From positions 72,108,001-72,172,000 of the forward strand of contig NW_024704742.1 in NCBI RefSeq assembly GCF_018977255.1: a DNA stretch of 64,000 nucleotides. The letters run 5' to 3'. Both the position numbers and the translations under genes were made by a program. Positions 16,325-64,000 of this stretch are shown here, piece by piece. Position 1 is the stretch's first letter. Each line of letters opens with the position of its first letter. The stretch comes from Callorhinchus milii (lineage: Eukaryota). The notes beneath the pieces were generated by a model. It did no database searches. It saw only the letters and a list, made by a program, of their open reading frames with translations, and was not told the DNA's origin.

Positions 16325-17368
16325 TGTGCAGGATTCCTCAGGAACCTATCCTTGGTCCCCTCCTCTTCAATATCTATATGCTCCTTCTTGCTATCATCAT
16401 CCGCAGACATGGGGTCAACTTCCACATGTATGCGGATGACACCCAACTCTATCTCTCTGACTCCACCCTTGACTCCAGGACCACTGCTGTCCTGACAGAA
16501 TGTCTGTCAGACATCAAGTCCTGGATGAGAGCTAACTTTCTTCAATTGAATGTCAACAAGACCGAGGCTCTCCTGATTGGCTCCCGTCAGCGCTTCCACA
16601 TCTCAGGCGCTGACAGATCACTATCTATGGTTGCACACTCCACCTTACTGAGCCAGTCCAGAACCTTGGCATCTTGTTTGACCCTTAACTTTCTACCCCA
16701 CATTTTGCCATGCTCCGCTCTGCCTTCCCCACCTCCGCAACATCACCGGACTCGGCCACTCTCACACCGCAGGCTGCCGAAACCCTTACACATGCTTTCA
16801 TTACATCGAGGCTTGACTATGCAAACTCATTGCTTGCCAACCTTTCCAACTCCTCCCTTCACAGCCTGCAGATGATCCAGAACTCAGCAGGCCATGTCCT
16901 CTCCCACACCCAATCACCCCCATCCTCGCCCAACTCCACTGGCTTCCCATCACACAGAGGATACAGTTCAATATCCTGGTCCTTACCTTCAAAGCCCTCC
17001 ATGGTCTTGCTTCCCCCTACCTCTGTAACCTCCTTACCCCCTATCATCCTGTTCGCTCCCTCCACTCAGCGAGCTCCGGCCTGCTTCACGTCCCACGCCT
17101 CGCTCGCCTCACTACTGGCGGGTTGGCCTTCTGCCACTCTGCCCCCACCCTCTGGAACTCCATCCCGTAGTCCCTCCGCCTCACCCCCTCCCTTGCCTCC
17201 TTCAAGACCCATCTCAAGACCCTCCTCTTCAACTATGCTTTTGATCTCCCTGCCCTCCATTCTCCCCAACCCCGACCCCCAGCTTGGGTCTGAAACTCTG
17301 TCCAGCACCTTGGGACATCCTCCCGATGTGAAAAGCTCTATACAAATGCAATTTTTTTTGTTGTTGTT
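16325..17368 (+). mobile_element. L2 LINE 3' fragment, frameshifted
   Basis: LGPLLFNIYM...YADDTQLY...SRLDYANSLL and an L2 tail. Confidence 0.92.
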
Positions 17369-23109: not shown

Positions 23110-24265
23110 CTGTCAGAGACTGTCAGAGTCCAGGCTGATGCTCCAATGCGGTGGTGGCAAAAGCGCCGCATTGTCAGAGGTGCCGTCCTTTGGATGAAAT
23201 GTTAAATTGAGGTCCCGTCTGTTCCTGTTCAAGCGGACATTAAAGATCTTGTGGCGTTATTTGAAAAATGAAGGGAGTTTCTCTCTCTCTGTGTCCTGGC
23301 CAACAATCCCCCAGATCAAGCCTATTCTTTGTATATGTTAATGACCTGGATTCACTGACCCAGTGTAAGACAGTTACACTTGCAGATGACACCAAGTCGG
23401 GGGGTACAGTGGAATCAGAGGAGGCAGCAAAGGCCCTACAAAGAGAGCCTGATAGGGTGTGTGCACATGGGCTGATAACTGGCAAATGAAGTTTAATACT
23501 AATAAATGTAAGGCACTACGTATAGGATCCAAGAATAGGAAACACAAATACTCCACGAATGGGACAGAACTTGCCAAGGAGGAGCTGAGAGAGATCTCGA
23601 GGTGTTAGTTGACTCGTTCCTCACTATGTCACACAGTGTGAGGCAGCAATAAACAAGGCAAACAGGACGCTAGATTGTCAATCATGTGAGTTCAGATCCC
23701 CAGACGTCACACTGGACAGGGCTCGGGTCAGGCCCCACCTTGAACACTGCAGACAGTCCTGGTCACTGTGACATAAGGGGCTGCTCAGACCCTAGAGACA
23801 GTGCAGAGGAGAGCAACGCGGCTGATCCCTAGTGTTAGAGGAATGAGCTGTGAGCAACGATTAGACAAACTCGGGCTCATCAGTCTGGAGACAAGGTGAC
23901 TCAGAGAAGATGTTATAGAGGTGTTAATATTTTAAATAAGATTGAAAAAACTCCAAGACAGTGCAACACCAAGTTGAGGGGTACAGTGGAACCAGCAAGG
24001 GTGGTTGAGCCCCGGACACAGGACTGATTTAATTAGGAGCTTGATGCCATGATGGGGGTATGGTACGGTTGAGATTCTGGAGGATGAGATCAGGTGGGTC
24101 GAAGGGTCTTCTTTATCCAAATCAATCATGTGATCTTGGAAAGTCTCTCATTCACTTCATGGCTGTTTGTGAGATGTTGCTGCGCGCAAATTGGCTGCGA
24201 TGTTCATCTACAAAACAGTCACTACACTTTAGAGTGAATCCTGTGAAGCATTTTGAAACATTTGG
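23110..24265 (+). mobile_element. DeuSINE-like SINE interrupted by a CR1 fragment (about 23320-24125)
   Basis: Deu-like core gtgccgtcctttggatgaaatgttaaa before, SINE tail after, and FVYVNDLD/ADDTK CR1 motifs between. Confidence 0.75.
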
Positions 24266-27479: not shown

Positions 27480-29027
27480 GCCTCAGTGTTGATGGGGGCG
27501 CTCTGTGTCGCGCGAGGTGGGGATGGGGCGCTCTGTGTCGCGCGAGGTGGGGATGGGGCGCTCTGTGTCGCGCGAGGTGGGGGGCGCTCTGTGTCGCGCG
27601 AGGTGGGGGGGCGCTCAGTGTCGCGCGAGGTGGGGGGGGCGCTCTGTGTCGCGCGAGGTGGGGGGGCGCTCAGTGTCGCGCGAGGGGGGGGCGCTCAGTG
27701 TCGCGCGAGGGGGGGGCGCTCAGTGTCGCGCGAGGGGGGGCGGGCGCTCAGTGTCGCGCGAGGGGGGGGGCGCTCAGTGTCGCGCGAGGGGGGGGGCGCT
27801 CAGTGTCGCGCGAGGGGGGGGGCGCTCAGTGTCGCGCGAGGGGGGGGGCGCTCAGTGTCGCGCGAGGGGGGGCGCTCAGTGTCGCGCGAGGGGGGGGCGC
27901 TCAGTGTCGCGCGAGGGGGGGGGCGCTCAGTGTCGCGCGAGGGGGGGGGCGCGGGGGGGGGGGCGCTCAGTGTCGCGCGAGGGGGGGGGGCGCTCAGTGT
28001 CGCGCGAGGGGGGGGGCGCTCAGTGTCGCGCGAGGGGGGGGGGCGCTCAGTGTCGCGCGAGGGGGGGGGGCGCTCAGTGTCGCGCGAGGGGGGGGGGCGC
28101 TCAGTGTCGCGCGAGGGGGGGGGGCGCTCAGTGTCGCGCGAGGGGGGGCGCTCAGTGTCGCGCGAGGGGGGGGGCGCTCAGTGTCGCGCGAGGGGGGGGG
28201 GCGCTCAGTGTCGCGCGAGGGGGGGGGCGCTCAGTGTCGCGCGGAGGGGGGGGGCGCTCAGTGTCGCGCGAGGGGGGGGGCGCTCAGTGTCGCGCGAGGG
28301 GGGGGGCGCTCAGTGTCGCGGGGGGGGGCGCTCAGTGTCGCGGGGGGGGGCGCGCTCAGTGTCGCGGGGGGGGGCGCTCAGTGTCGCGGGGGGGGTGGGA
28401 GCTCAGTGTCGGGGGGGGGGGAGCTCAGTGTCGCGGGGGGGGTGCGGAGCTCAGTGTCGCGGGGGGGGTGGGAGCTCAGTGTCGCGGGGGGGGGAGCTCC
28501 GTGTCGCGGGGGGTGGGAGCTCAGTGTCGCGGGGGGGTGGGAGCTCAGTGTCGCGGGGGGGTGGGAGCTCAGTGTCGCGGGGGGTGGGAGCTCAGTGTCG
28601 CGGGGGGTGGAGCTCAGTGTCGCGGGGGGGTGGGAGCTCAGTGTCGCGGGGGGGGGGGGGGGGGGGAGCTCAGTGTCGCGGGGGGGGGGGTGGGAGCTCA
28701 GTGTCACGGGGGGTGGGAGCTCAGTGTCGCGGGGGGGGTGCGCGTTCAGTGTCGCGGGGGGGTGGGAGCTCAGTGTCGCGGTGGGGGGGGTGGAAGCTCA
28801 GTGTCGCGGGGGGGGTGGGAGCTCAGTGTCACGGGGGGGTGGGCGCTCAGTGTCGCGGGGGGGTGCGCGTTCAGTGTCGCGGGGGGTGGGAGCTCAGTGT
28901 CGCGGGTGGGGGGGGTGGGAGCTCAGTGTCGCGGGTGGGGGGGGTGGGAGCTCAGTGTCACGGGGAGGTGGGAGCTCAGTGTCGCAGGAGAGGGCACTCA
29001 ATGTTGGAGGAGTGCTCAGTGTCGGGG
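27480..29027. repeat. G-rich CpG-dense minisatellite of about 24-26 bp (ctcagtgtcgcgcgaGn) filling HSPA12B intron 6
   Basis: About 60 units with variable G-runs. Confidence 0.97.
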
Positions 29028-36720: not shown

Positions 36721-38669
36721 TAGTGAACTGAAAAGGTACCAACTTTAATGACTCATTTTAAGAACAGCATCTCCAACCCACAGTAACACAGTGTCAGACA
36801 GGAGCAGATGATCGCCCACCTCACACGCACAAGATTCCTCAGCACCATCTCTCTCATCACCTCAAAACCCCAGTCTGTCCACATTGACAGTCTTGCTCGT
36901 TTGTTCTGTTATTCTCTGTCTCGCTGCCCAGCGATCGCCAGTTCCTGGAAAGCCTAGACACCCCTGTGCTTTCCTTGTTTGGCCCTATCAGCGCTGGCTG
37001 TCTGACTTGCCAGGAATCTGCTTCTTATCGGTTTATTTCTAGGAAAATGATTTTCAGGATTACAGCCAGGTGATCGTACGGCTTCCTCACACCCACCCCA
37101 TGGCTCCTCTTCCTGCCAATGGAACGCATATCAATCATTCATCCTGAACTCCAGCAATCTCCAACCAATTCCAACCCCATCCACACTGCTCTCTTTCTCA
37201 ATCATTCTCATTCTCCCTGTCAAACTTTCTCATTCACACTCTCTTTCTGTCAATTTTTTTTTGGTCACTCTCTGTCGATCTTCCCTGTTCTCTCAGTCTC
37301 TCGCGCTCTCTGTTTCAACACATGTCAACACCCAGCACTAGTCTATAGCACATGTCAACACCCAGCTCAGAGTCTGATACACTCCCATATTCACTCACTC
37401 TCACGCATTCACTCACACATTCATTCATCCTCGTCTTAACTTCTATCTGAATAGACACAGACGTGAACTTGGTTTAACACCGCATACAGAGGATGGTGTC
37501 TCCAGCACTGCGCTGGAGCACCATCCTGAACTGTCGGCCAAGAGTCACCCATGTTGGAATTCGGCAAGAGGCAGAGCGAGGGTGTGAGGGGCAGAGGTAA
37601 GGGGCAGAGCAAGAGTGTGTGTGGGGAGTGAAGGTATGAGGGGCGGAGCGAGGGTGTGAGGGGTGCAGTGAGGGTATGAGGGGTGGAGCGAAGGTATGAG
37701 GGGTGGAGCCGGGTGCGAAGGGTGGAGCGAGGTTGTGAAGGGCAGAGTGAGGGTGTGAAGGAAAGAGTGTACATGCACACTCACTTACGCACATTCACTC
37801 ACACTGTTTAATAGTTTTCCTTTAGTTTTCTGGTTGGAATATTGGGAGTGAAGAGTTAACAGAAAGAGCAGGAAAGGAGCCGGATTCTGGCCGACAACCA
37901 CGCAGGAATGTCACGCCCACTTACCTCCTGGCCTAATGGGCTGTGTCACCTTTCACCCCATCCCTATGCTTGGGTGAGCACGGGGGAGAGGGTGGTGGGG
38001 GGGGGAGGGGGAAAGCACTGCATTCACCCTACCTCACCCATCTCCCCCCACAAACAACCTCGCTGCCCTGGGAGTGTATACGGACAATGTAGGGGGAGCT
38101 TTACTCTGTCTCTAACCCATGTGGTCGCAGTCCCACCACCTTGGAACATCCTTCTGACCACTATTCAAATGTAATTTGTTGTTGTTGTCACTAACCTGGG
38201 AGTTTATAAGGACAGTGTAGAGGTAGCTTTACTCTGGCTCTAAACCGTGTTGTCACTGACTTGGGAGTGTGGATGGTATAATATAGGTAGGAGTGAATCA
38301 TACTGTGCATTGTACACACAGGCGATAACACTGAGACACACAGGAATCGTTCAGCACCGGAGGGGAGGGAGGCAGCCATACAGGCACACAAAGGTGAGAG
38401 CAGGAACACGCGAGGTCAATTAACTAGGTCAGAGCAGAGAGGGTCTGTGCCCCCCATCCCTTCTCGGGCTCCGTTATGATGGGACCCTCTCGCAGGACAG
38501 AAAAGCAGACACACGCACTCAGCTCCCCAGGCCTGAAATTCCACTTGTTCTCACCCGTAAAACCATTTGGCTTAAAATGTAAATTCCTCAATCAGTCTCA
38601 GTTTGAAGCCACTTTTTCCGTAGTTTCTTAAAAGATAAATATTCTCAGAACCGACAACATCAAAGATCT

Positions 38670-43047: not shown

Positions 43048-43879
43048 GAATATCTAGTGAAATATGGTTGGACGAAGCCGGTGAGATGGGAGCTTCTGGC
43101 ATTCCGGGGCGTGACGGTTCCGCTGAACGATGACCCTCCGCCCCCAGATATCTCCGAGCTGCTCTCGGAGGGCCGCTACGCTCGCCGACACATCCAGGAA
43201 GAGGTGCGGCCACAGGAGATGAAGCCGCAGTACGTCAATGCCCTCAGAAGCTTCCAGAAAGCCAATGGGCTGCCTGTCACCGGAATCCTGGACATGGCCA
43301 CCACCGACGCCATGAACAAGCCTCGGTGCGGTGTTCCTGACCACAAGACCCCAGACAATGAGCCAGAACCAGACGGGGGGGAGGGTCGTGCCCCGCCCTC
43401 TAGAACCACACCTGCTCCTGGCACTGTCTCTAAGGCTGGCCCCACCCATGGCCCTACCACAGGCCCCACCCCTGCTCCAGGCCCCATCCCTAGTGCCTAC
43501 TTCACCCCTGCTGCCGCCCCTGTCCCCATCCCCGGCCCAGATCTCGTCCTTGGCCCCACCCCTGATGTCATCACCCCGGGCTCTGCCCCCGGCCCCGCTC
43601 GGGCAAGGCGGTTCCTACAGCTTGTGTTGGATGCCGGCAGGTGGCCGCGAGGCTCGGCAGATTTCCTGGACGCGGCGACTCTGCAGCTGGGCTTCACCAA
43701 GACACGGCTGAAATGGCGGATCCTGGCCGAGGGCTACAGCTCACAACTGAGTGTGGAGGACCAGCGTCTGATCCTCAGGCTCGCCTTCCGCATGTGGAGC
43801 GAGGTCACCCCACTCACCTTCCAGGAGGACCTGCTGGCCAGCGGCTCCCACATCGACATCAAGCTGGGCTTCGGGACCA
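43048..43879 (+). CDS. MMP21-like exon 2 (prodomain, cysteine switch, furin site, start of the catalytic domain)
   Basis: EYLVKYGW...PRCGVPD...RARR...LAFRMWSEVTPLTFQED...DIKLGFGT. Confidence 0.93.
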
Positions 43880-44194: not shown

Positions 44195-44334
44195 AGAGAC
44201 ACCTAGGCTGTTCTCAGGTCTTTGACGGGACGGGCCGTGAGTATGCCCACGCCTGGCGCTTGGGGAACATTCACTTTGATGACGACGAGCACTTTGTGGC
44301 CCCGACCAGCACGGAAGGCATCAGCTTACTGAAG
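44195..44334 (+). CDS. MMP21-like exon 3
   Basis: [33 protein letters not shown]...GISLLK; 140 bp. Confidence 0.95.
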
Positions 44335-47366: not shown

Positions 47367-47508
47367 GTGGCGGTGCACGAGATCGGCCATGTGCTGGGTT
47401 TGCCTCACATGCAGCGCGCAGGCTCCATCATGCAGCCTAACTACATCCCCCACGCTTCCACCCTGGAGCTGGACTGGGAGGACAGGAAGGCCATCCAGAA
47501 GATCTACG
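47367..47508 (+). CDS. MMP21-like exon 4 (zinc-binding motif)
   Basis: [14 protein letters not shown] (HExxHxxGxxH) and Met-turn SIMQP; 142 bp. Confidence 0.96.
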
Positions 47509-48055: not shown

Positions 48056-48065
48056 GCGTATACAG

Positions 48066-48323
48066 GCGTGTGTAAGGGGAACTTTAATACCGTCTTTGAC
48101 TGGGTTCGCAGAGAGTATAACCAGTTGGGGGAGGTCACGTACCGCTATAACACTTATTTCTTCCGTAAGAGCTGGTACTGGATGTACGAGAACCGTAAGA
48201 ACCGCACGCGGTATGGGGACCCTATCCCCCTGTCAGTGGGCTGGCGGGGAATCCCTCCGTCCAACCTGGATGCCTTTGTCCATATATGGACGTGGAATAA
48301 AGACACCACCCTCTTCTTTAAAG
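48066..48323 (+). CDS. MMP21-like exon 5 (hemopexin domain)
   Basis: [16 protein letters not shown]...[17 protein letters not shown]...DAFVHIWTW; 258 bp. Confidence 0.95.
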
Positions 48324-48630
48324 GTAGATGTTGCTCTGGAATGTAGTGCAAACTCACAAATATACCAACCTCCTTTTCACTCACTTCCACTGTACACACT
48401 CCTAATGGCCCAAACCCCTTCCCAGTGTAGAGGAGTGTCAAAGCTGATCTCCAATGTTAGAGACAGAAGAAAATGTCAAAGCTGATCCCCAGTGTTAGAG
48501 ACAGAGAAGGGCAGCGAGGCTGATCCCAATATTGGAGACAGAGCAGCAAGGCTGATCCCAGTGTCAGAGAAGAAGACAGCAGTGAGGCTGATCCTACAGT
48601 GTTGGAGACAGAGGAGAGCAGCGAGGCTGA

Positions 48631-49226
48631 TCATAGAATTATACAGCACAGAAGGAGGCCATTCGGCTGAGGCTTAACCAGTGTTTTATAAATGTTCATC
48701 ATAACTTCCTGACTTTTGTATTCTTTGCCCCTATTTATAAAGCCTAGTATCCCGTACGCTTTTTTAACAGCTTTATCTACCTGTCCTGCCACCTTCAAAG
48801 ATTTACTGATCTCTCTGTTCCTTCACCCCCTTTAAGATTGTACCATCAGCTTATATTGCCTCTCCTCATTCTTCCTCCGAAAATGCATCACTTCGCATTT
48901 CTTCACATTAAACTTCATCTGCCACGTGTCTGCCCATTGTCCCCTTGCAGTCTGCTACTATCCTCCTCACTGTTTGCTACTTCTCCTAGCTTAATATCAT
49001 CCTCAGTCTTGGAAATTGTACTCCCTATAGCCAAGTCATTTATATAGATCAAAAACAGCAGAGGTCCCAATACTGACCCCTGGAGGTCACCACTGCACAC
49101 TTCCCTCCAGTGAAAAACAGCCAGTCACCACCACTCTCTGCTTTCTGTCTTCCAGCCAGTTCTGTATCCATGCTCCACTGTCCCTTTAATACCGTGGGCT
49201 TCTAAGTTGCTTACAAGTCTCTTATA
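48631..49226 (-). mobile_element. CR1 fragment inserted into a CR1-derived tandem array
   Basis: GSVLGPLLFLIYINDL on the minus strand; CR1 3' tail at 48631. Confidence 0.85.
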
Positions 49227-49924
49227 TGATCCTAGTGTTAGAGACAGAGGAGAGCAGTGAGGCTGATCCCAGTGTTGGATACAGAGGAGAGCAGTGATGC
49301 TGTACCCAGTGGTTGAGAGATGAGCTGTGAGAATTGGACAAGCTCCGACTGTTCAGACTGGAGCGATGTCTCAGAGGAGACCTTAGAGGTTTCTATAAGA
49401 TTGAGAGAAGAAACCCAGAACAATGCTCTCAGATACACCAGGACAAGACGTCATGGGGTCAGGAGTGTGAGCAGCAATTCCAGGACAAAGATCTGGAATG
49501 TATTGACGGGGGAAATTGACAGCTCGGAACAGGGTCACCAGGAAGGTCGCTTAATAAACATTGATGGGAGGACAGTTGTGAGAGGATGAAGGGTCTTCTC
49601 CCACCCAAACCTCTTGTGTGAATCACATGTGACTTGTTTACAGATCCTTTAGTGTGGCAATCACTGAATGTAGGCGGAGATTACAACAACAAAATTACAT
49701 TTGTTTAGTGCCTTTCACGTTGAGAGGAGGTCCTAAGGGGCTGGCCCAAGATTATTAATGAATGTGTGTGTGAGTCTCACTGTGTGTGTGCGTCACTGTG
49801 TGTGTGTGTGTGTGTGTGTGTGCGTCACTGTGTATGTCAGTCTCACTGTGTGTCCTTCTCAATGTGTGTGTCAGTCTGACTGTGTGTGTGTGTGTATGTC
49901 AGTCTGACTGTGTGTGTATGTCAG

Positions 49925-50097
49925 GCACACAGTACTGGCGCTATGACAATGACAATGACCGGGTGTACACGGAGGACTGGAAGGGGAACCGATACCCCAA
50001 GCTGATCACCCAGGGCTTCCCTGGCATTGAGGGCCCCATCGACACAGTCTTCTTCAACAAGAGAGATCACATCATCTACTTCTTCAAGGGATATAAC
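49925..50097 (+). CDS. MMP21-like exon 6 (hemopexin domain)
   Basis: [17 protein letters not shown]...[12 protein letters not shown]...IYFFKGYN; 173 bp. Confidence 0.95.
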
Positions 50098-50751
50098 GTG
50101 AGTGTGAGTGCCACCTGTCACGTATCTGCCTCCCCGCGCACCACACCATCCATCTCCCCCCATACTGTTCATCTTACTCCCCCACACTGTTTGTCTCCCA
50201 CACACTTCTGTAAACACCCCCAGGTCAGTAACAGCATGGATTAGAGAAAGAATAAGACTCCCTTTAGATTGATGTGTTGAGGACAGGAGCGGGGTGAGGT
50301 CAGGAAAGATGAATTGGTGCAGTGCGGTGTTGAGAGGAAACAGTGGATACAGGACACTGGAGATAAGGAGGTCTGAGAGATTGTGGTGCTGGAGATAGGG
50401 AGCCGGGTGAGGAGGGGGTCAGAGCTGTGTCAAGGAGCAGACCCCACCCACCCCACCTCAGCCCTGTGACTCTGTTTGTCGCTGGTGGAGGTGTAGCTGA
50501 GATTTTCCCACGCGTATGCCAACTCCCAGCTCGATGAACTTCCCAACTATTCCCTCCACAAGCTGTAGACTATCCAGAACTCTGCAGCGGCTGGCTCCAC
50601 TAGCTCTGCTCACACTCCTGACCCCATGACGTCTTGTCCTGGTGTATCTGAGAGCATTGTTCTGGGTTTCTTCTTCCCATCTTATATAAACCTCTGAGGC
50701 CTCCTCTGAGACATCGCTCCAGTCTGAACAGTCGGAGCTTGTCCAATTCTC

Positions 50752-52040
50752 ACACCCAACTCTACCTTTCCTCCTCTACCCTCAACTCCATGACCACCGA
50801 TGTTCTGACAGCCTGCCTGTCTGACATTGAGTCCTGGACGAGAGACAACTTTCTTCAGCGCAACGTGCGTAAAACTGAGGCCCTCCTGATTGGCTCGCGT
50901 CAGCGCCTCCGCACCTCAGGCGCTGACAGCATCAGCATCCAAGGCTGCATTCTCCACCTCTCAAAGCCATCAGGAACCTCGGGGTTCTGTTCGACCCTGA
51001 GCTGTCCTTTCTCCCTCATATCCGCACCACAACTGGCACCGCCTTCCATCACCTCCGGACCATCGCCAGACTACGGAACTACCTCACCCCTCACGCTGCT
51101 GAAACCCTGGTCCACGCCTTTATCACCTTAAGACTGGACTATGGGAACTCTCTCCTCGATGGCCTTCCCGGCACCTCCCTCCACACTGCAGGTCATTCAG
51201 AACTCTGCAGCTCGTGTACTGTCCCGCACCAGGCTTCGCGACCACATCACTCCCACCCTCGCTCGCCTCCACTGGCTCCCCATCCCCCAGAGGATCGAAT
51301 TCAAGATCCTCACCCTCACCTACAAGGCCATTCATGGCCTCGCTCCCTCCTACCTCTCCGACCTACTATCCCCTACGTACCTGCCCGTACCCTCCGTTCC
51401 TCTGGCTCCGGTCTACTCCACATCCCCCGCCCCAACCGCCCTACCATCGGTGGCCGGGCCTTCAGCCTCTCAGCCCCGAGGCTCTGGAGCTCTATTCCCC
51501 AGTGCCTTCGCCTCCTCCCTTTCCTCCTTCAAGGTCGGTCTCAAGACCTTTCTCTTTGACCTTCAGCTCCCCTCTCGACTCTCTACCCCCTCCTCGCTCC
51601 CTCCCTTCCCTCCCCCTGACCATTTCCCCCCAATGCTCGGGTCCCTACCCAACTGTACAGCGCCTTGGGACGTTCTCGTCTCTATAAATAGAATCTTGCT
51701 GTTGTAGAGTTTAAAATCCTCGTCCTCGCCTTAAAAGCTCTCCATGGCCTTGCTCATTCCTACCTCTGTAACCTGCTAACCCCATATCAACCTGTCTGCT
51801 CCCTTCGCTCAGGAGGCACTGGTCTACACAAGGTCCCCCGCGCCCCTGCTCCACCATCAGCAGTCGGGCCTTCAGCCTCTCCGCCCCCACCCTCTGGTAC
51901 TCATCCCGGAGTCCATCTGGCTTACCTCCTTCAAGGCTTGTCTCAAGACCTTCCTTTTCAACCATGCCTTTGGTCACCTCCCCCCTCCCCCGGTCCCAAC
52001 CCCCAGCTCAGGTGCAAACCCCTCATTGTACAGCACCTCA
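50752..52040 (+). mobile_element. L2 3' fragments (two tandem 3' ends)
   Basis: TQLYLS...KTEALLIG...LHWLPIPQRIEFKIL. Confidence 0.9.
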
Positions 52041-52119
52041 GGTGCAAAACATAGTGGCTAGAATCCCCCCGGTTCGATTCCCAGGCAAGCCAAAATTCCC
52101 GACATTCTCGCCCTCACTG

Positions 52120-55100
52120 AAATCTGAATCACTCCAGGCGACACCTTCCCCCTGATAGAGGCCACACAACCCAGCTACTCCTACATCACACGCCACGACC
52201 TAACCACTGTGTTGTGGTGTGGCTCTCATCTCCCGGTCCCCACTCGGCCTATCCCCTTACTCCTCTGAAACCTTCCCCTCCTTAGAGCACCTTATCCTTT
52301 ACCACCCTGCCAACCTTTCCTTGAAAATTCTCCTTATAAATCGCACCCCCCAAGCCCTCCCCCACCTTCATCCCCGACATCTCCACCCTCCTATCTTCCC
52401 TCTCCCTCTGCTCTGAACACCTCCTCATCCTAGGAGACTTCAACCTTCACTTCACCCCTCCTGCTCTATCTCTGCTGACTTCTCCTCCCTTATCTCCTCC
52501 CTCAACCTCTCCTTCCATATCCACTCTGCCACCCACGTCCGTGGTCAGCCCCTCGCCGTCTCGGACCTCACCATCATCGACAAAGCGATCTCGGACCATC
52601 ACTTCATCTCCCTTAACTCCTCAAAACCCCCCACTCTCGGCTGCCTTGGAGTCATCTGAACTCCTTCCCCCCTGGGCTTCCTCCCGCAATGACCTATCCT
52701 CCTTGATCACTCTTCTCCACAGCTCCCTCTCCTCCACACTTGATTCCCTTGCTTCCCTCTCTTCCCAAACTGTCTCCTATTCACATAAGTCACCATGGTA
52801 CACCAGCCACTTCTGCTCCTTTAAAGTACAGGTGCGTGCCGCTGAACGCACCTGCTTAAATCAAATTTAATGGGCCATCAGCAGATCTGGCTGGACCTTA
52901 TCAAATCTTACAGCTCCGCCCTCACCTCCGCTAAATCGTCGTTCTACTCCAAGACAATCTTGGAGGCCAAGGACAACCCTAGGCTCCTCTTCTCCATCAC
53001 CAACCGGCTTCTCTGCCCACCCTCTCATGCCTCGCCATCCTCACCTCAAATGCCAACTGTGAGCAGATGCTAGGTTCCTTGAATCCAAAGTTGAAGGGAT
53101 TTGCTCAGCTGCCTCTGCTATTCCGTCTGCTACCCCCTTCCCATCTCCTCCTCCCACCCCGTCCCCTACCCATCCCTCCCTCCACACCTTCAAACCTGTC
53201 TCCCACTCCTCTTTCACCACCACTATAACCTGCCTGAAACCGACCAACTGCTCCCTTCGCCCCATCCCTACCCCTCTTCTTACCTCCCAGCTCCACTTCC
53301 TTATTCCTCTACTCAGACATCATAAACCTGTCGACTGGAACTGTTCCCATCCATTAATAACTGCCGTTATCACTCCTTAAAAAACCCTCCCTGGACCCAT
53401 CTCTATTCTCAAACTACCGCCCCATCTCCAACCTCCCTTTCCTCTCCAAAGTCGTGGTTGCTTCCCAGCTTTGCTCCTTCCTCTCCTGCCACTCCCTTCA
53501 CTAACCCCTTCAATCGGGTTTCTGTGCCACCCACAGCACAGAAACAGCTCTGGTCAAAGTGACAAATGACATTCTGTCCATCTTCCACCAGGGCTCCCTC
53601 TACCTCCTCGTCCTCCTTGACCTCTCTGCTGCCTTCAACACTGTCGACCACTCTTATCTTTATCCACCTGCACTCCTCTCACCTCAACCTTCACGGCTCT
53701 GTCCTTGACTGGTTCAGATCATACCTCTCACACCACCTCCACTTCATCTCCACAAACGGTTTCTCCTCTAGCCCCTGTACCGTCTTGTGCGGCGTTCCTC
53801 AGGGCTCTGTCCTTGGTCCCCTCCTCTTCAATATCTATATGCTCCCTCTTGGTGACATTACCCACAGACTTGGGGTCAAATTCCACATGTATGCGGATGA
53901 CACCCAACTGTACATCTCTGCCTCCACCCTTGACTCCAGGACCACTGATGTCCTGAGAGAATGTCTGTTAGACATCAACAACAACAAAATTACATTTATA
54001 GAGCTCCTTTCACGTCGGAAGGACGTCCCAGGGCGCTAGACAGTCAGGGGTCAGGATCCAAGCATGGAGGAGGCGTGGGGTAGGGATGAGGGAAGGCAGA
54101 AAGGTGGGAGGGCGACTGAAGGAACAATCGAAGAGGAAGGTCTTGATATCGGCCTTGAAGGAGGCAAGGGAGGATGCGATGTGAAGGGACTGTGGGATGG
54201 AGTTCCAGAGTGTGGAGGCAGAGAGGCTGAAAGCCCGGCCACCGATGGTAGGACGGATCAGGTGGGAGATATAGAGCAGGCCGGAGCCCGCTGAATGGAA
54301 GGAGCGGACAGGTTGGTAGGGAGTTAGCAGGTTAGAGAGGTAGGAGGGGGCTTTGAAAGTGAGGATGAGGATCTTGTATTCGATCCTCTGAGGATCCTGG
54401 ATGAGAGCTAATATTCTTCAGTTGAAAGACAAGACCGAGGCTCTTCTGATTGGCTCCCATCAGTGCCTCCACACCTCAGGTACTGACAGCATCACCATCC
54501 ATGGATGCACACTCCACCTCACTAGGCCAGTCCAGAACCCTGATGCCTTTTTTGACCCAAGACTATCCCTTCTACCTCTCATCTGTGCCATGACCCGCTC
54601 TGCCTTCCCCCACCTCCGCAACATTGCCTGGCTTCGCCACTGTCTCACACCACAGCCGCCAAAACCCTCTTACACGCTTTCATTAAATCGAGGCTTGACT
54701 ATGCAAACTCCTTGCTTATCGGCCTCACCACCTCCTCCCTCCATAGGCTGCAGATCATCCAGAACTCTGCAGCCTGTGTCCTCTCCTGCACCAGACTCCC
54801 TGACCCTATCAACCCCATCCTCACCCTACTCAACTGGCTTCCCATCACACAGAGAAGACAGTTCAAGATCCTGGTCCTCACCTTCAAAGCCCTCGTTGTT
54901 CCCACCTATCTCTGCGACCTCCTAACCCCCTACCATCCTGCTCACTCCCTCCGCTCAGCGGGCTCCGGCCTGCTTCATGTCCCCTACCTCACTTGCCCCA
55001 CTTTTGGCGGGCGGGCCTTCTGCCATTCTACTCCCACCCTCTGGAACTCCATCCCAAAGTACCTCCATCTCGCCCCCTCCCTTGCCTCCTTCAACATCTC

Positions 55101-55238
55101 AAGACCCTCCTCTTCGACCGTGCCTTCAATCAACCTGCTTCCCTCCCTGCCCTCCACCCTCTCCAATCCTGACCCCCAGCTTGGATCCGAAACTCTGTCA
55201 GTCCAGCTCCTTGGACATGAAATGCAATTTTGTTGTTG
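52120..55238 (+). mobile_element. Long degenerate L2 ORF2 (endonuclease to RT to 3' end), interrupted by an inverted L2 3' end at about 53979-54394
   Basis: ILGDFN, GVPQGSVLGPLLFNIYM and YADDTQLY motifs; the host sequence gacatcaa / tcctggatgagagct resumes after the insert. Confidence 0.9.
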
Positions 55239-55543
55239 AAACCTTAGGCAACATGAAACCTTATTCCACATGCCTCTGTTTACCAAGCAGTAAGTAGGAA
55301 CCTAGCTTTTAGTCGATTGGCAAAATGGTTCCGGGGGTAATAATCCCTTTAAAAAAAACCGAAAATTTGGTCACTTAATCCATGACTGTTTGTGGGACAC
55401 TGCTGTGTGCAATTGGCTGCTGCGTTTCGCCCACAAAATACAAAATCAATCCACTTTACAGTATATTCTGTGAAGCATTTTGAGATGTCTAGAATACATG
55501 ATAAGGTGCTAAATAAAATGCAAGGATTATTCTTATTATTATT
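55238..55543 (+). mobile_element. tRNA-SINE, headless copy
   Basis: Body and tail match the family. Confidence 0.85.
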
Positions 55544-55636
55544 GGGACGTTCTCCTGACTTGAAAGGCGCTGTGTAAATATAAATTATTGTTGTTGCCCA
55601 ACCCAGTGCTGACTGCTGTCTTTTGCTGCCCGATAG

Positions 55637-55942
55637 GTGACAGCCTTTAACACTGACCAGAATGCCCGCCTTGACGGCTGGCCAAAGCGCATCGTGGACG
55701 TATTCCCCCCGGTGGTCCCAGGAGACCACCCACTGGGGAACCTGGACTCCGTCTACTTCTCCTACAGCCTTAGTGCTGTCTTCATGTTCAAGGATGCAGA
55801 GTTCTGGCGGGTGGTGGGCGAGCGGGACCGGGAAAGGAACTCCTCATTGCCCCTTAACAGCCTCCTCCCCGCCCGCTCCATCCACCAGCAGTGGTTCGAC
55901 ATCTGTGACGGTGATGCACCCCTCGTCTTCGGCTCCGAGTAG
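55637..55942 (+). CDS. MMP21-like exon 7 (last)
   Basis: VTAFNTDQNARLDGWPKRIVDVFP...QWFDICDG...SE*; the 7 exons sum to 2067 nt in frame. Confidence 0.94.
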   Translation: MTAFNTDQNARLDGWPKRIVDVFPPVVPGDHPLGNLDSVYFSYSLSAVFMFKDAEFWRVVGERDRERNSSLPLNSLLPARSIHQQWFDICDGDAPLVFGSE

Positions 55943-56449
55943 AGGGCGAGTGGTGTCTCCCCCTCACCCCATCTCTGCCCCTCACCCTGTATCCCCCCCC
56001 CTCATCTCCCTCTCACCCCATCTACCCCCCTCACCCTGTATCCCCCCATCTCCCCCCTCACCCTGCATCCTCCCCTTCACCGCACCTCTCCCCCCTTCCC
56101 CCATCTCTTCTCTCTCCTGACCTTTCTTTCCCCCTTCCCCCAATCATTCTCTTCTCATTCTATTCTCTCGGCTCCCTCTCCTTCTGTGTGACCTGCTCAC
56201 CGTTGGTGTTGCTGTTATTGTTAACAAGTGGCCTGTTTGGCTTGCACTGTAGTGTTCCCCCACCCCGTCTATACTGGGCCTGTGACTGTTCTGTGTATCT
56301 GACCTTCTGCCTGTATCGGCATAGTGTGATTGTATCTCTCACTGTATATGTAAGTTACTAGTGCCTGTGAATGTATTGTGCCTGTACCTCTGCCTGCAGG
56401 GCACAATGTACTTGGTGTAAATGGAAATGCACAATGTACTTAGTGTAAA

Positions 56450-61316: not shown

Positions 61317-61584
61317 ACAATAGGGCAGTTTGGTGTGGCAGGAGGAGACAGAGAGCAAGAGAAATGCCCTCCTTTTTTCGAACAGCACTGCAGGATTTTT
61401 AACGTCCGCCTGAACTGGCATAGACGAGGCCTTGGTTTAATGTTTCATCTGAAGGATGGCATCTCTGACAATGTGGTGGTCTCTCTCCCCAGCAGTGCAC
61501 TGGAGCGTCAGCCTGAACTGTGAGCTCAGAGTACCCAACATGAAGCTTGGAGTTATGAGCTGTGGAGGTTGAGTGATGCCATAC

Positions 61585-61709
61585 CTGTAAGCTGCGATCT
61601 CGATGTCCAGCGCCATTTTGACGTTGAGAAGGTCCTGGTATTCCCGCAGGTAACGCGTCATCTCCTGTTTTGCATCATTGATATCCTTATCCAGCTCGCT
61701 GATCCTCTC
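61585..61709 (-). CDS. Neurofilament-like gene exon 3
   Basis: [41 protein letters not shown](R); a 125-bp exon with type IV intron positions. Confidence 0.95.
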
Positions 61710-62035
61710 CTGCTCACACACACACAGTCAGTCACTGAGAGGCCGAGAGTCAGTCTATCTGCCTCAGTCCCACTGTCTGACCCAGCCAATTACACTGCAT
61801 TACTTGTTCACACCGAAGTTGCCATTTCCCATTGCCACACTTGCCAGTGCCAACATGCACACTCACCGACACACACTCAGTCTGATGCATTAATATACAC
61901 TCTGACACACTATGAGCCGAATGATCTGCTTTCTGTGCTGTAAATCTCTCTGGTGAGATGGAGGGGGGGCAGAGATGGAGTGGGGGTGAGATTCAGAGAG
62001 TGGGTGGGGGGTGAGATGGAGGGAGGAGCTTGTAC

Positions 62036-62854
62036 CTGGTATTTGGACACCTCCTTGCCCTGCCTGTCCTCCAGGCTCTCCAGCTGTTTGTGTAAGGAGT
62101 CAATGACATTCTTGAGACCCTCGATCTCGGAGCCTCGGGACTGCAGGAGACGCCGGTACTCAGCCGTCTCTTCCTTGATGGATCTGACGGCCTGGTTGTT
62201 CTTGTTGGCCATCTCAGCCACGGTGGCCACCTTGGTTCGGTACCAATCCTCGGCCGCCTGCATGTTCTTATTGGCTAGCGTCTCGTACTGCGAACGGATC
62301 TCCTTCAGGGCCACGGCCAGGTCTGGTTTGGTCACCTCCACCTCCACAGTCAGGTGGGCAGCCTGGATCTGGGACAGCAGCTCGGCGTTCTCCTGGCCAT
62401 GGACCTTCTTGATGAAAGCGATCTCCTCCACCAGGGAGCTGACGGTCCCCTCCACCTCACTGTTGGCCAGGACCACTTTGCCCGCCTCCTCCCTCATCTT
62501 GTGCAGGTTATCCTCAGCCTCCAGCCGCAGACGCACCTCTTCCTCGTACTTGTCCTTCAGCTGGGAGTAGATCTGGCGCAGCCGCTCGCGCTCCCCCTCC
62601 ATCCGCGCCTTCTCGTTGCTCTCGGCATCCAGCAGAGCCCGCAGGTCGCGGATCTCCTGCTCGTAGATGAGATGGAGCCTTGGGGGGTCAGATTGCTTCT
62701 GTCTCAGGGCTTCCAGCTCCACCAGCAGCACCTTGTTCTGCTGCTCCAGGTAGTGAACCTTCTCGATGTAGGTGGCGAAGCGGTCGTTCAGGTCCACCAG
62801 CTGCTCTCGCTCCTGGGCTCTCAGCGTCAGCAGCTCCGCGTTCACATTACTCAC
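62036..62854 (-). CDS. Neurofilament-like gene exon 2 (most of the rod domain)
   Basis: ...EREQLVDLNDRFATYIEKVHYLEQQN...KPDLAVALKEIRSQYE...KYQ; 819 bp, phase 0-0. Confidence 0.95.
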
Positions 62855-62956
62855 CTGCAGGGGGCAACAAATCAAATACCTTGGTAGCCCAAAGTCAACC
62901 AAATACCAGCCCAAAACGTAGCCCAATATCATGCGTAGCCCAAGGTCAACCAAATC

Positions 62957-63155
62957 GGAGTTCTGCGGCGTAGTGGCCAGAACCCTCGCCTCGCAAGCGA
63001 GAGGACCCAGGTTAGATTCCCGGACACTGCTACGCGCAATTGTTTGCCACGTTTCGCCCACAAAACTTTACAGTAGATTCTGTGAAGTGCTTTGAGATAT
63101 CTCGAACACATGATAAGACGCTATATCAAATGCAAGGATTATTATTATTACTATT
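62957..63155 (+). mobile_element. Internally deleted tRNA-SINE in neurofilament-like intron 1
   Basis: Head joined to the ggacactgct...tail segment. Confidence 0.85.
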
Positions 63156-63264
63156 AAATACTAGCCCAGTAACATGCATTGCCGATTGGCCATTCTGCTT
63201 CGCACAGCCGGAAACGCATATTTTTGAGCTGGCATTTTAAAACTATGCAAGAAAGGTTTTTTTT

Positions 63265-63480
63265 TTCTCTTCGACCGTGCCTTCAGCTCCCCTCTCGACT
63301 CCGTACCTCCTCCTCGCTCCCTCCCCTTCCCCTGACCATTTCCCCCCTCCTCGCTCCCTCCCTTCCCTCCCCGACCATTCCCCCCCCCCCCAATGCTCGG
63401 GTCCCGACCCAACTGTCCAGCGCTTTGGGACGTCCTCCCGACGTGAAAGGCGCTCTGTAAATGGAATCTTGTTGTTGTAG
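63265..63480 (+). mobile_element. L2 3' end
   Basis: Matches the terminus of the L2 copy at 51550-51705. Confidence 0.85.
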
Positions 63481-63782
63481 TTGTGTGTGAAAAAAACACA
63501 CATTTTGCGGGTTTACATTTTTTAAAATATATATATATATACACACACCTGATTTTATTATATATATATATATACATATTATATATATTATACACCTATT
63601 AAAAAAAAGCATTTGCCCAACCGGTGTTTTTTCACGGGTGCCACCCCAAAAAAAAAACAACCCCCCCCTCCCCCCAAAAAAAAACAACCCCCCCAAAAAA
63701 AAACAACCCCCCCCAAAAAAAAAAAAACCGCCCAACTTGGGCGTGAAAACCCGCCCAATCTGAGCAGCGTCGCTTCGCTCAC

Positions 63783-63995
63783 CTGCGACAGGTCCACCCG
63801 CTCGGTGTAGTCCGCGAGCAGCGCGGCGGCGGCGCTGCTCCGGGCCGCCCGCTTGGGGCCGGGGCCGGGGCCGGGACCGGGGCCCGGGGAGCGGTGCACC
63901 GAGTACAGACCCGAGCAGACGCCGGTCTTGGTCGGGCGGCTGCGGTGCTCATCCCACGGTTTGCGCAGAGGCGCGAAGGGCTCGTAGGCGCTCAT
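63783..63995 (-). CDS. Neurofilament-like gene exon 1 (head domain)
   Basis: MSAYEPF...RVDLSQ/gtgagc; NEFL-like start and DLSQ motif; CpG-rich; the four exons give 405 aa. Confidence 0.85.
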
Positions 63996-64000
63996 GTTGC

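Follow-up and report, generated by a model that had tools for sequence, protein, structure and literature searches.

About half of the copies of the zebrafish element ZfL2-2 carry extra nucleotides at the 5' end, many of them taken from flanking DNA (PMC4245944), and target truncations of more than 20 bp are a recognised class in the L2 clade, where long truncations also occur (PMC2666801). Among 3,598 human L1 insertions, 22 were templated, mostly over less than 250 bp, with the template within 15 bp of the site (10.1101/2024.08.27.596794). Templated genomic insertions, self-annealing after kilobase resection and insertions made from two RNAs have also been described for L1 (PMC11702581). Germline templated insertions with microhomology (MMB-TI) are known as well, and the yeast events cited for them lie within 100 bp (PMC8421209). 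A survey of 208 vertebrate genomes counted 4.59 million inverted repeats with arms longer than 400 nt (PMC8728187). In C. elegans, exon skipping as well as back-splicing is promoted by complementary matches that flank an exon (PMC8330042), and exons that form single-exon circles have means of 404–709 nt and medians of 169–253 nt (PMC6376117).

The locus that we describe here lies in a 64-kb stretch of Callorhinchus milii DNA (the window), in an mmp21-like gene on the plus strand. Its left arm (49326..49474, plus strand) and the reverse complement of its right arm (50606..50754, minus strand) match at 143 of 149 bases, with six differences and no gap. The arms are 1,131 bases apart at their inner ends, and the 173-nt exon 6 of the gene (49925..50097) sits between them, 450 nt from the left arm and 508 nt from the right. 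The preliminary description had claimed a 149-bp, 96% inverted repeat around MMP21-like exon 6, and we confirm it. There are 143 self-matches of at least 100 nt in the window, and three of these reach 90% identity; two of the three are tandem arrays, which leaves the arm pair as the sole inverted match.

We conclude that the feature belongs to a known kind, a template-switch copy at the 5' junction of a LINE. It has in common with ZfL2-2 the flank-derived non-LINE sequence at the truncated 5' junction of an L2-like element, the short microhomology and a deletion of more than 20 bp, although those papers speak of 'several' extra nucleotides, whereas here there are 149 bases, inverted and from 1.1 kb upstream (PMC4245944, PMC2666801). 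In templated insertions of human L1, as here, a template of less than 250 bp is duplicated beside the LINE (10.1101/2024.08.27.596794; PMC11702581). However, those templates lie within 15 bp, the events are somatic or from cell lines and the LINE is of another clade, while the template here is 1.1 kb away (10.1101/2024.08.27.596794). A nearby template, germline persistence and perhaps flanking microhomology are shared with MMB-TI, but the original signature of MMB-TI extends over 100 bp, and here the template is ten times farther away and one junction is a LINE end (PMC8421209).

The left arm is internal to an old 3' remnant (49227..49618, plus strand), the 5' part of which is a 37-bp tandem array (49227-49320). 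We take this remnant to be CR1-like from its motifs. Positions 49282-49618 align with a CR1-like copy at 23804-24132 at 74% identity (nhmmer E 3.5e-12) on both sides of the left arm, and the homology crosses both arm ends. The right arm has no CR1-remnant flank and no remnant end; its flanks are both L2-like, a family label that we give to the host and nested elements alike. To its left, an older host L2-like element (50515..50605, plus strand) stops at the arm, and positions 50515-50588 of this element are 74–76% identical to L2-like copies at 16818, 51140 and 54700. To its right lies a young 5'-truncated L2-like LINE with a 3' tail (50752..51704, plus strand), after which the host element resumes (51705..52038, plus strand). 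The right arm begins at the break in the host element and stops at the start of the nested element, which it overlaps by three bases, ACA (50752-50754). The nested copy begins with TQLY, a motif of the RT domain, and in the family proteins YADD sits immediately ahead of TQLY. It is 89–94% identical to four C. milii RT-domain proteins, on one of which RVT_1 was found. Between the landmarks that bracket the break there are 84–85 bases in two other L2-like copies, 71 in a third and 18 in the host, so about 66 nt of the host element are missing at this point, a figure that comes from the other copies rather than from a pre-insertion allele.

This anatomy modifies the earlier proposal that both arms are a CR1-like remnant. 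The proposal holds for the sequence itself, but it is the left arm alone that sits in its original place within the remnant, and the right arm is an excerpt copied from it. Two other candidates were rejected. A DNA transposon with terminal inverted repeats does not fit, as the two arms have different outer flanks and the left one lies within a LINE remnant, and neither does an inversion of exon 6, which is in frame and in the orientation of the gene.

Several other repeats were observed in the window. The arrays at 48440-48632 and 49227-49320 share a 32–37-bp unit from one CR1-like segment and lie 600 bases apart within intron 5, with another repeat between them. A contig in two runs (X1 and X5) joins 48629 to 49234 with six letters between, though one side is only 23 letters long and could come from a repeat at another site. 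Intron 5 also contains an antisense LINE/SINE 3' tail (49680-49744), which is about 78–81% like tails at 53978, 56641, 63417 and others and is a weaker possible pairing partner. In intron 6, an antisense L2-like piece (53975-54393) sits inside a longer sense L2-like element and pairs inverted with 54901-55094 (194 nt, 77%). A GC-rich minisatellite with a 26-bp unit in about 59 copies occupies 27494-28985. On the minus strand, 61500-64000 holds an intermediate-filament gene, tail to tail with mmp21-like, which by its motifs is presumably neurofilament/internexin-like.

We looked at copy number with contigs from 4 of 24 listed runs, aligned to 48060-55960 at 90% likeness; contig depth is not copy number. 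In DNA run X1, depth was 26 over 49380-49643, a bin that holds 95 of the 149 arm bases, compared to 9 and 12 in two unique-looking bins. Over the nested LINE it was 4e5–1.3e6, four orders of magnitude above the arm bin. The bin with the outer 54 left-arm bases had a depth of 15,415 in X1, but other repeats share that bin. Many dispersed copies of similar identity would have refuted the preliminary description; the depths point to few. We therefore consider it barely credible that the arms are two independent insertions of a young dispersed family. The window abounds in LINE and SINE copies and has 543 inverted pairs of at least 30 nt, and this, together with the deep outer bin, is what such a family might leave. 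However, a depth of just 26 at 90% likeness, a nearest other relative in the window that is only 74% alike and the lack of either remnant end in the right arm largely refute it. By homology and by contig depth, then, the earlier preference for a local inverted duplication over two insertions stands; the gene conversion that had been offered as its alternative is unneeded for the overall 4%, as we discuss below.

At several sites the nested LINE subfamily itself has high depth in X1 and low depth in X9, from organism B (for example 385,304 compared to 1,051 at 51060), and for this reason it looks lineage-specific. In X9 one piece covers exon 6 (49893-50116, with 14 differing letters), and none of the listed pieces covers an arm.

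The same contigs bear on whether one arm was duplicated through misassembly. None of the 32 pieces listed spans the right arm, and the X1 contig over the left arm differs from the window at six letters whose positions are not given, both of which would suit an artefact; these six letters may instead reflect collapse onto the right-arm version. Against an artefact, an X1 contig (49247-49474) stops exactly at the last base of the arm and the next contig begins 30 bases earlier. This is where an assembly graph would branch into two inner flanks, which would explain the break at 49474. The depth of the X1 left-arm contig is 7.9, which fits the 7.8–8.3 expected for two copies with a distinct middle better than the 9.5–10.1 expected for identical arms, although other unique-looking X1 contigs vary in depth from 3.9 to 10.6. 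In addition, six differences and clean LINE junctions are atypical of a misjoin. We regard misassembly as highly improbable.

How the copy arose is less settled. We hold with about even confidence that it is a templated insertion (template switch) made as one event with the integration of the LINE. A young L2-like LINE inserted into the older L2-like element in intron 6, as the nested anatomy shows, and the upstream target end lost about 66 bases, as the comparison with other copies shows. The 3' end of the top strand may then have looped back, annealed through a few bases to its own strand 1.1 kb upstream and been extended by 149 bases, with the CR1-like remnant in intron 5 as the template. 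The extended end would have joined the truncated LINE cDNA through the 3-base overlap, and the outcome would be an inverted copy beyond exon 6. Priming from the LINE cDNA end instead would give the same product.

A single event is supported by the placement of the arms, the left one internal to a longer remnant and the right one flanked by L2-like sequence only. The locus has the hallmarks of a templated insertion: non-LINE sequence at the 5' end of a truncated LINE (the arm ends at 50754 and the LINE starts at 50752), an insert from flanking genomic DNA (143/149) and a target truncation of ~66 nt. The template distance of 1,131 bases is well beyond the ~100 bp of the MMBIR-type signature and the 15 bp of the L1 templates, which counts against a single event. 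Junction microhomology amounts to three bases at the outer end, and an overlap at the inner end can be read only from another L2-like copy. We also considered extended homeology at the junctions as a guide to template choice and rejected it, because the wider similarity is not exceptional: the inner end merely shares the top score with one of three test copies, while the outer end falls outside the best six.

The age of the nested LINE is also consistent with a single event when it is estimated from protein. Set against the majority of close family proteins, the copy has 4 differing residues out of 87, which corresponds by simulation to ~2% in DNA. From this age we expect 4–6% between the arms, or 6–9 differences, and we see 6 in 149; the probability of six or fewer is 0.2–0.6. 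Gene conversion between the arms is not needed for the overall 4%, though it may have taken place.

The distribution of the differences complicates this picture. All six (49380, 49384, 49393, 49402, 49404 and 49405) are confined to 26 bp (49380..49405), between identical blocks of 54 and 69 bases. This clustering has a p of 0.0004 if they are six events and of 0.01 if they are counted as four. The 123 bases outside the cluster are identical, which has a probability of 0.0005–0.007 if each arm drifted by 2–3%, and since this is improbable under drift, a later event or gene conversion would be needed to explain it. Error-prone synthesis and conversion of the flanks are candidate causes of the cluster. 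Four other CR1-like copies aligned too poorly to polarise the six changes and assign the derived arm. We rejected the idea that the changes perfect small palindromes, a post hoc hypothesis with a p of 0.04–0.14 without a loop and 0.14–0.7 with loops.

The cluster is one reason to take seriously a template switch that came after the LINE insertion, which we consider a distinctly less probable explanation but a real contender. A break or stalled fork would have removed 66 bases of the host and the original 5' part of the nested LINE, and MMBIR- or polymerase-theta-type repair would have inserted the inverted copy. Error-prone synthesis would have made the six clustered differences at once, leaving 123 of 149 bases without a difference. 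No coincidence is needed for such a repair to end at the LINE, because the arm will adjoin the LINE after any deletion that spans the old junction, and germline templated insertions with microhomology are known (PMC8421209). Higher estimates of the age of the nested LINE point the same way: long contig pieces differ from it by 7–9%, and its 3' end differs from a copy at 63262-63482 at 13 of 159 columns. With such divergence the nested LINE would predate the arms. The protein-based age argues against later repair, as it agrees with the divergence of the arms.

An RNA-templated variant is also conceivable, in which the upstream target end primed reverse transcription on the nascent pre-mRNA of the gene itself, with a twin-priming geometry. 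The orientation suits cDNA of a sense transcript, two-RNA insertions have been described for L1 (PMC11702581), and two of the six differences are A-to-G in the sense orientation. However, the other four changes are not, the variant requires germline transcription at the moment of insertion, and a DNA fold-back reaches the same product more simply. We think that this variant is very unlikely.

We return to the gene in which the repeat sits. The exons 43048-43879, 44195-44334, 47367-47508, 48066-48323, 49925-50097 and 55637-55942, when spliced, give 616 of 616 residues of XP_007906776.2. Exon 5 (48066..48323, plus strand, 258 nt) matches C. milii MMP21-like proteins at 99%. Exon 6 (plus strand, with AG..GT ends) encodes part of the hemopexin region, and the last coding exon (55637..55942, plus strand) runs through the stop codon. 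We keep the exon numbering of the preliminary description; the RefSeq model has an extra upstream exon at 37493-37597. Pfam finds matrixin and hemopexin domains on the protein. Exon 2 encodes a long Pro/Thr/Gly-rich stretch behind the cysteine switch.

The MMP21 of vertebrates is a left-right patterning protease (10.1101/2024.10.13.618030), and the window gene has in common with it the matrixin catalytic domain and the hemopexin region. It differs in its grouping. In a quick maximum-likelihood tree of 46 proteins (the window protein and 45 of 95 homology matches), the window protein clusters with shark and ray 'mmp21-like' proteins with an SH-aLRT of 100, and both C. milii mmp21 and mammalian MMP21 fall elsewhere. 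The window gene is, as judged by sequence, a paralogue of MMP21. C. milii has at least three genes of the MMP21 family (P0101, P0050 and P0075), and the window gene is not the one that groups with mammalian MMP21. A literature search on the mmp21-like locus, with subscription papers mostly outside its reach, found nothing on the repeat or on exon-6 skipping; MMP21 together with Callorhinchus yields work on Nodal and Lefty.

In pre-mRNA the arms are predicted to be able to pair as a 149-bp stem, with exon 6 in the loop. The predicted duplex has -290 kcal/mol, and the stem is present in both the MFE and the centroid folds of 49300-50790. At the difference cluster it would contain two G-U pairs, two A-C mismatches and two pyrimidine mismatches. 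The adenines of the A-C mismatches are A49380 and A49404, and ADAR favours A opposite C. When pairing was compared across exons, exon 6 had -295 kcal/mol and the next best pairing across it -17.5; no inverted matches flanking exons 2–5 were found when each internal exon was tested. As in the circRNA and skipping systems described, complementary segments lie in both introns and the stem is strong, though here it is predicted, at 450–508 nt from the splice sites (PMC8330042, PMC6376117). The complementarity here is due to one local copy, and not to a pair of elements from an abundant family. The introns around exon 6 (1.6 and 5.5 kb) and the exon are on the short side of the circRNA ranges given in the literature (PMC8330042, PMC6376117). 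We believe that the stem is most likely an ADAR substrate.

Skipping the 173-nt exon shifts the frame, as had been predicted, and a stop appears four codons into exon 7, the last exon. A stop codon in the last exon should let a transcript escape nonsense-mediated decay, and because the skip stop falls there, the exon-6-skip transcript should escape it.

All five C. milii gene models of mmp21-like include exon 6. In X6, guessed to be an RNA run, exon 5 and much of exon 6 (49924-50063) are covered by contigs. One contig runs 31 letters past exon 5, and the arithmetic of lengths (148+2+29=179) suggests that these letters fit an exon 5–6 splice. An X6 contig stops matching at 48322, two bases short of the donor of exon 5, and this may point to a variant base or to another route into exon 6. 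Both guessed RNA runs (X5 and X6) are available as contigs only, and neither covers the arm bin 49380-49643. The 15 joints listed out of 3,996 include no back-splice and no exon 5–7 joint, but at 90% likeness the joints are flooded by repeats and contigs drop rare forms, so this says nothing either way. Counts of A>G places are similar in DNA and guessed-RNA runs (43, 40, 39 and 38) and are due to repeats. We think it most likely that exon 6 is still included in most transcripts and that skipping or a circle, if either occurs, is a minor by-product that is not under selection.

Sharks and rays offer a comparison. RefSeq isoforms of the zebra shark, the horn shark, Mobula birostris and Hypanus sabinus read the last exon in the exon-6-skip frame. 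These four belong to orthologue clusters that span 12 elasmobranch species (P0017, P0097, P0105 and P0107); two low-quality skate proteins from the homology search were left outside the count. In a codon-compatibility test of each against its own long isoform, the fit was 62/62 for Stegostoma X2, 84/84 for Mobula birostris X2, 14/14 for Hypanus X2 and 5/5 for Heterodontus X3, and in each case, among about 155 offsets tried, the one that equals a missing exon 6 was the sole fit. Such isoforms are gene models rather than validated transcripts, with tails of 4–83 residues whose lengths are not conserved. Five further isoforms end or branch elsewhere around exons 5–7 and cut or disrupt the hemopexin region, and loose 3' processing around these exons is a fair reading. 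In the 10 other MMP21-family clusters we found no exon-6 skip: all 36 proteins include the exon (of 38 members, two fragments without exon 5 were set aside). Since skip isoforms exist in sharks and rays without this repeat, the exon is skippable in the paralogue, but the repeat is not needed for it.

Could the stem be a selected splicing element, one that drives skipping or back-splicing of exon 6 and tunes a hemopexin-truncated isoform? This would be compatible with either origin of the repeat. The flanking pairing of exon 6 is the strongest among the internal exons tested, its acceptor has the fewest pyrimidines in the gene (9/17; other exons have 10–15), and the skip stop is placed where decay should be escaped. 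Exon-6-skip isoforms are annotated in the orthologue in 4 of the 12 elasmobranch species, and flanking complementary matches drive both outcomes in C. elegans (PMC8330042). However, the repeat cannot explain the shark and ray isoforms because it is young and adjoins a LINE subfamily with low depth in organism B. The skip is seen in none of the five C. milii models, and 173 nt is at the low end for single-exon circles (PMC6376117). We judge a selected role unlikely. Slightly more doubtful still is a bolder version, that exon 6 is an old cassette exon, that its skipping yields a stable protease lacking most of the hemopexin region, and that the stem of the elephant shark scar drives both the skip and a 173-nt circle. 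If true, this would be a datable case of a by-product of retrotransposition taking control of an ancient splice choice.

The locus offers a clear natural example of how a single LINE-associated template switch can surround a coding exon with an almost perfect inverted repeat in its introns, with no young family involved. LINE-rich genomes can gain new RNA stems in this way, and such cases can be counted across a genome. Without an effect on RNA, the repeat would be an ordinary mutational scar at a skippable position. Should the stem shift splicing, the scar would be tied to an MMP21-like isoform with a truncated hemopexin region, of a kind that shark and ray annotations contain as well.
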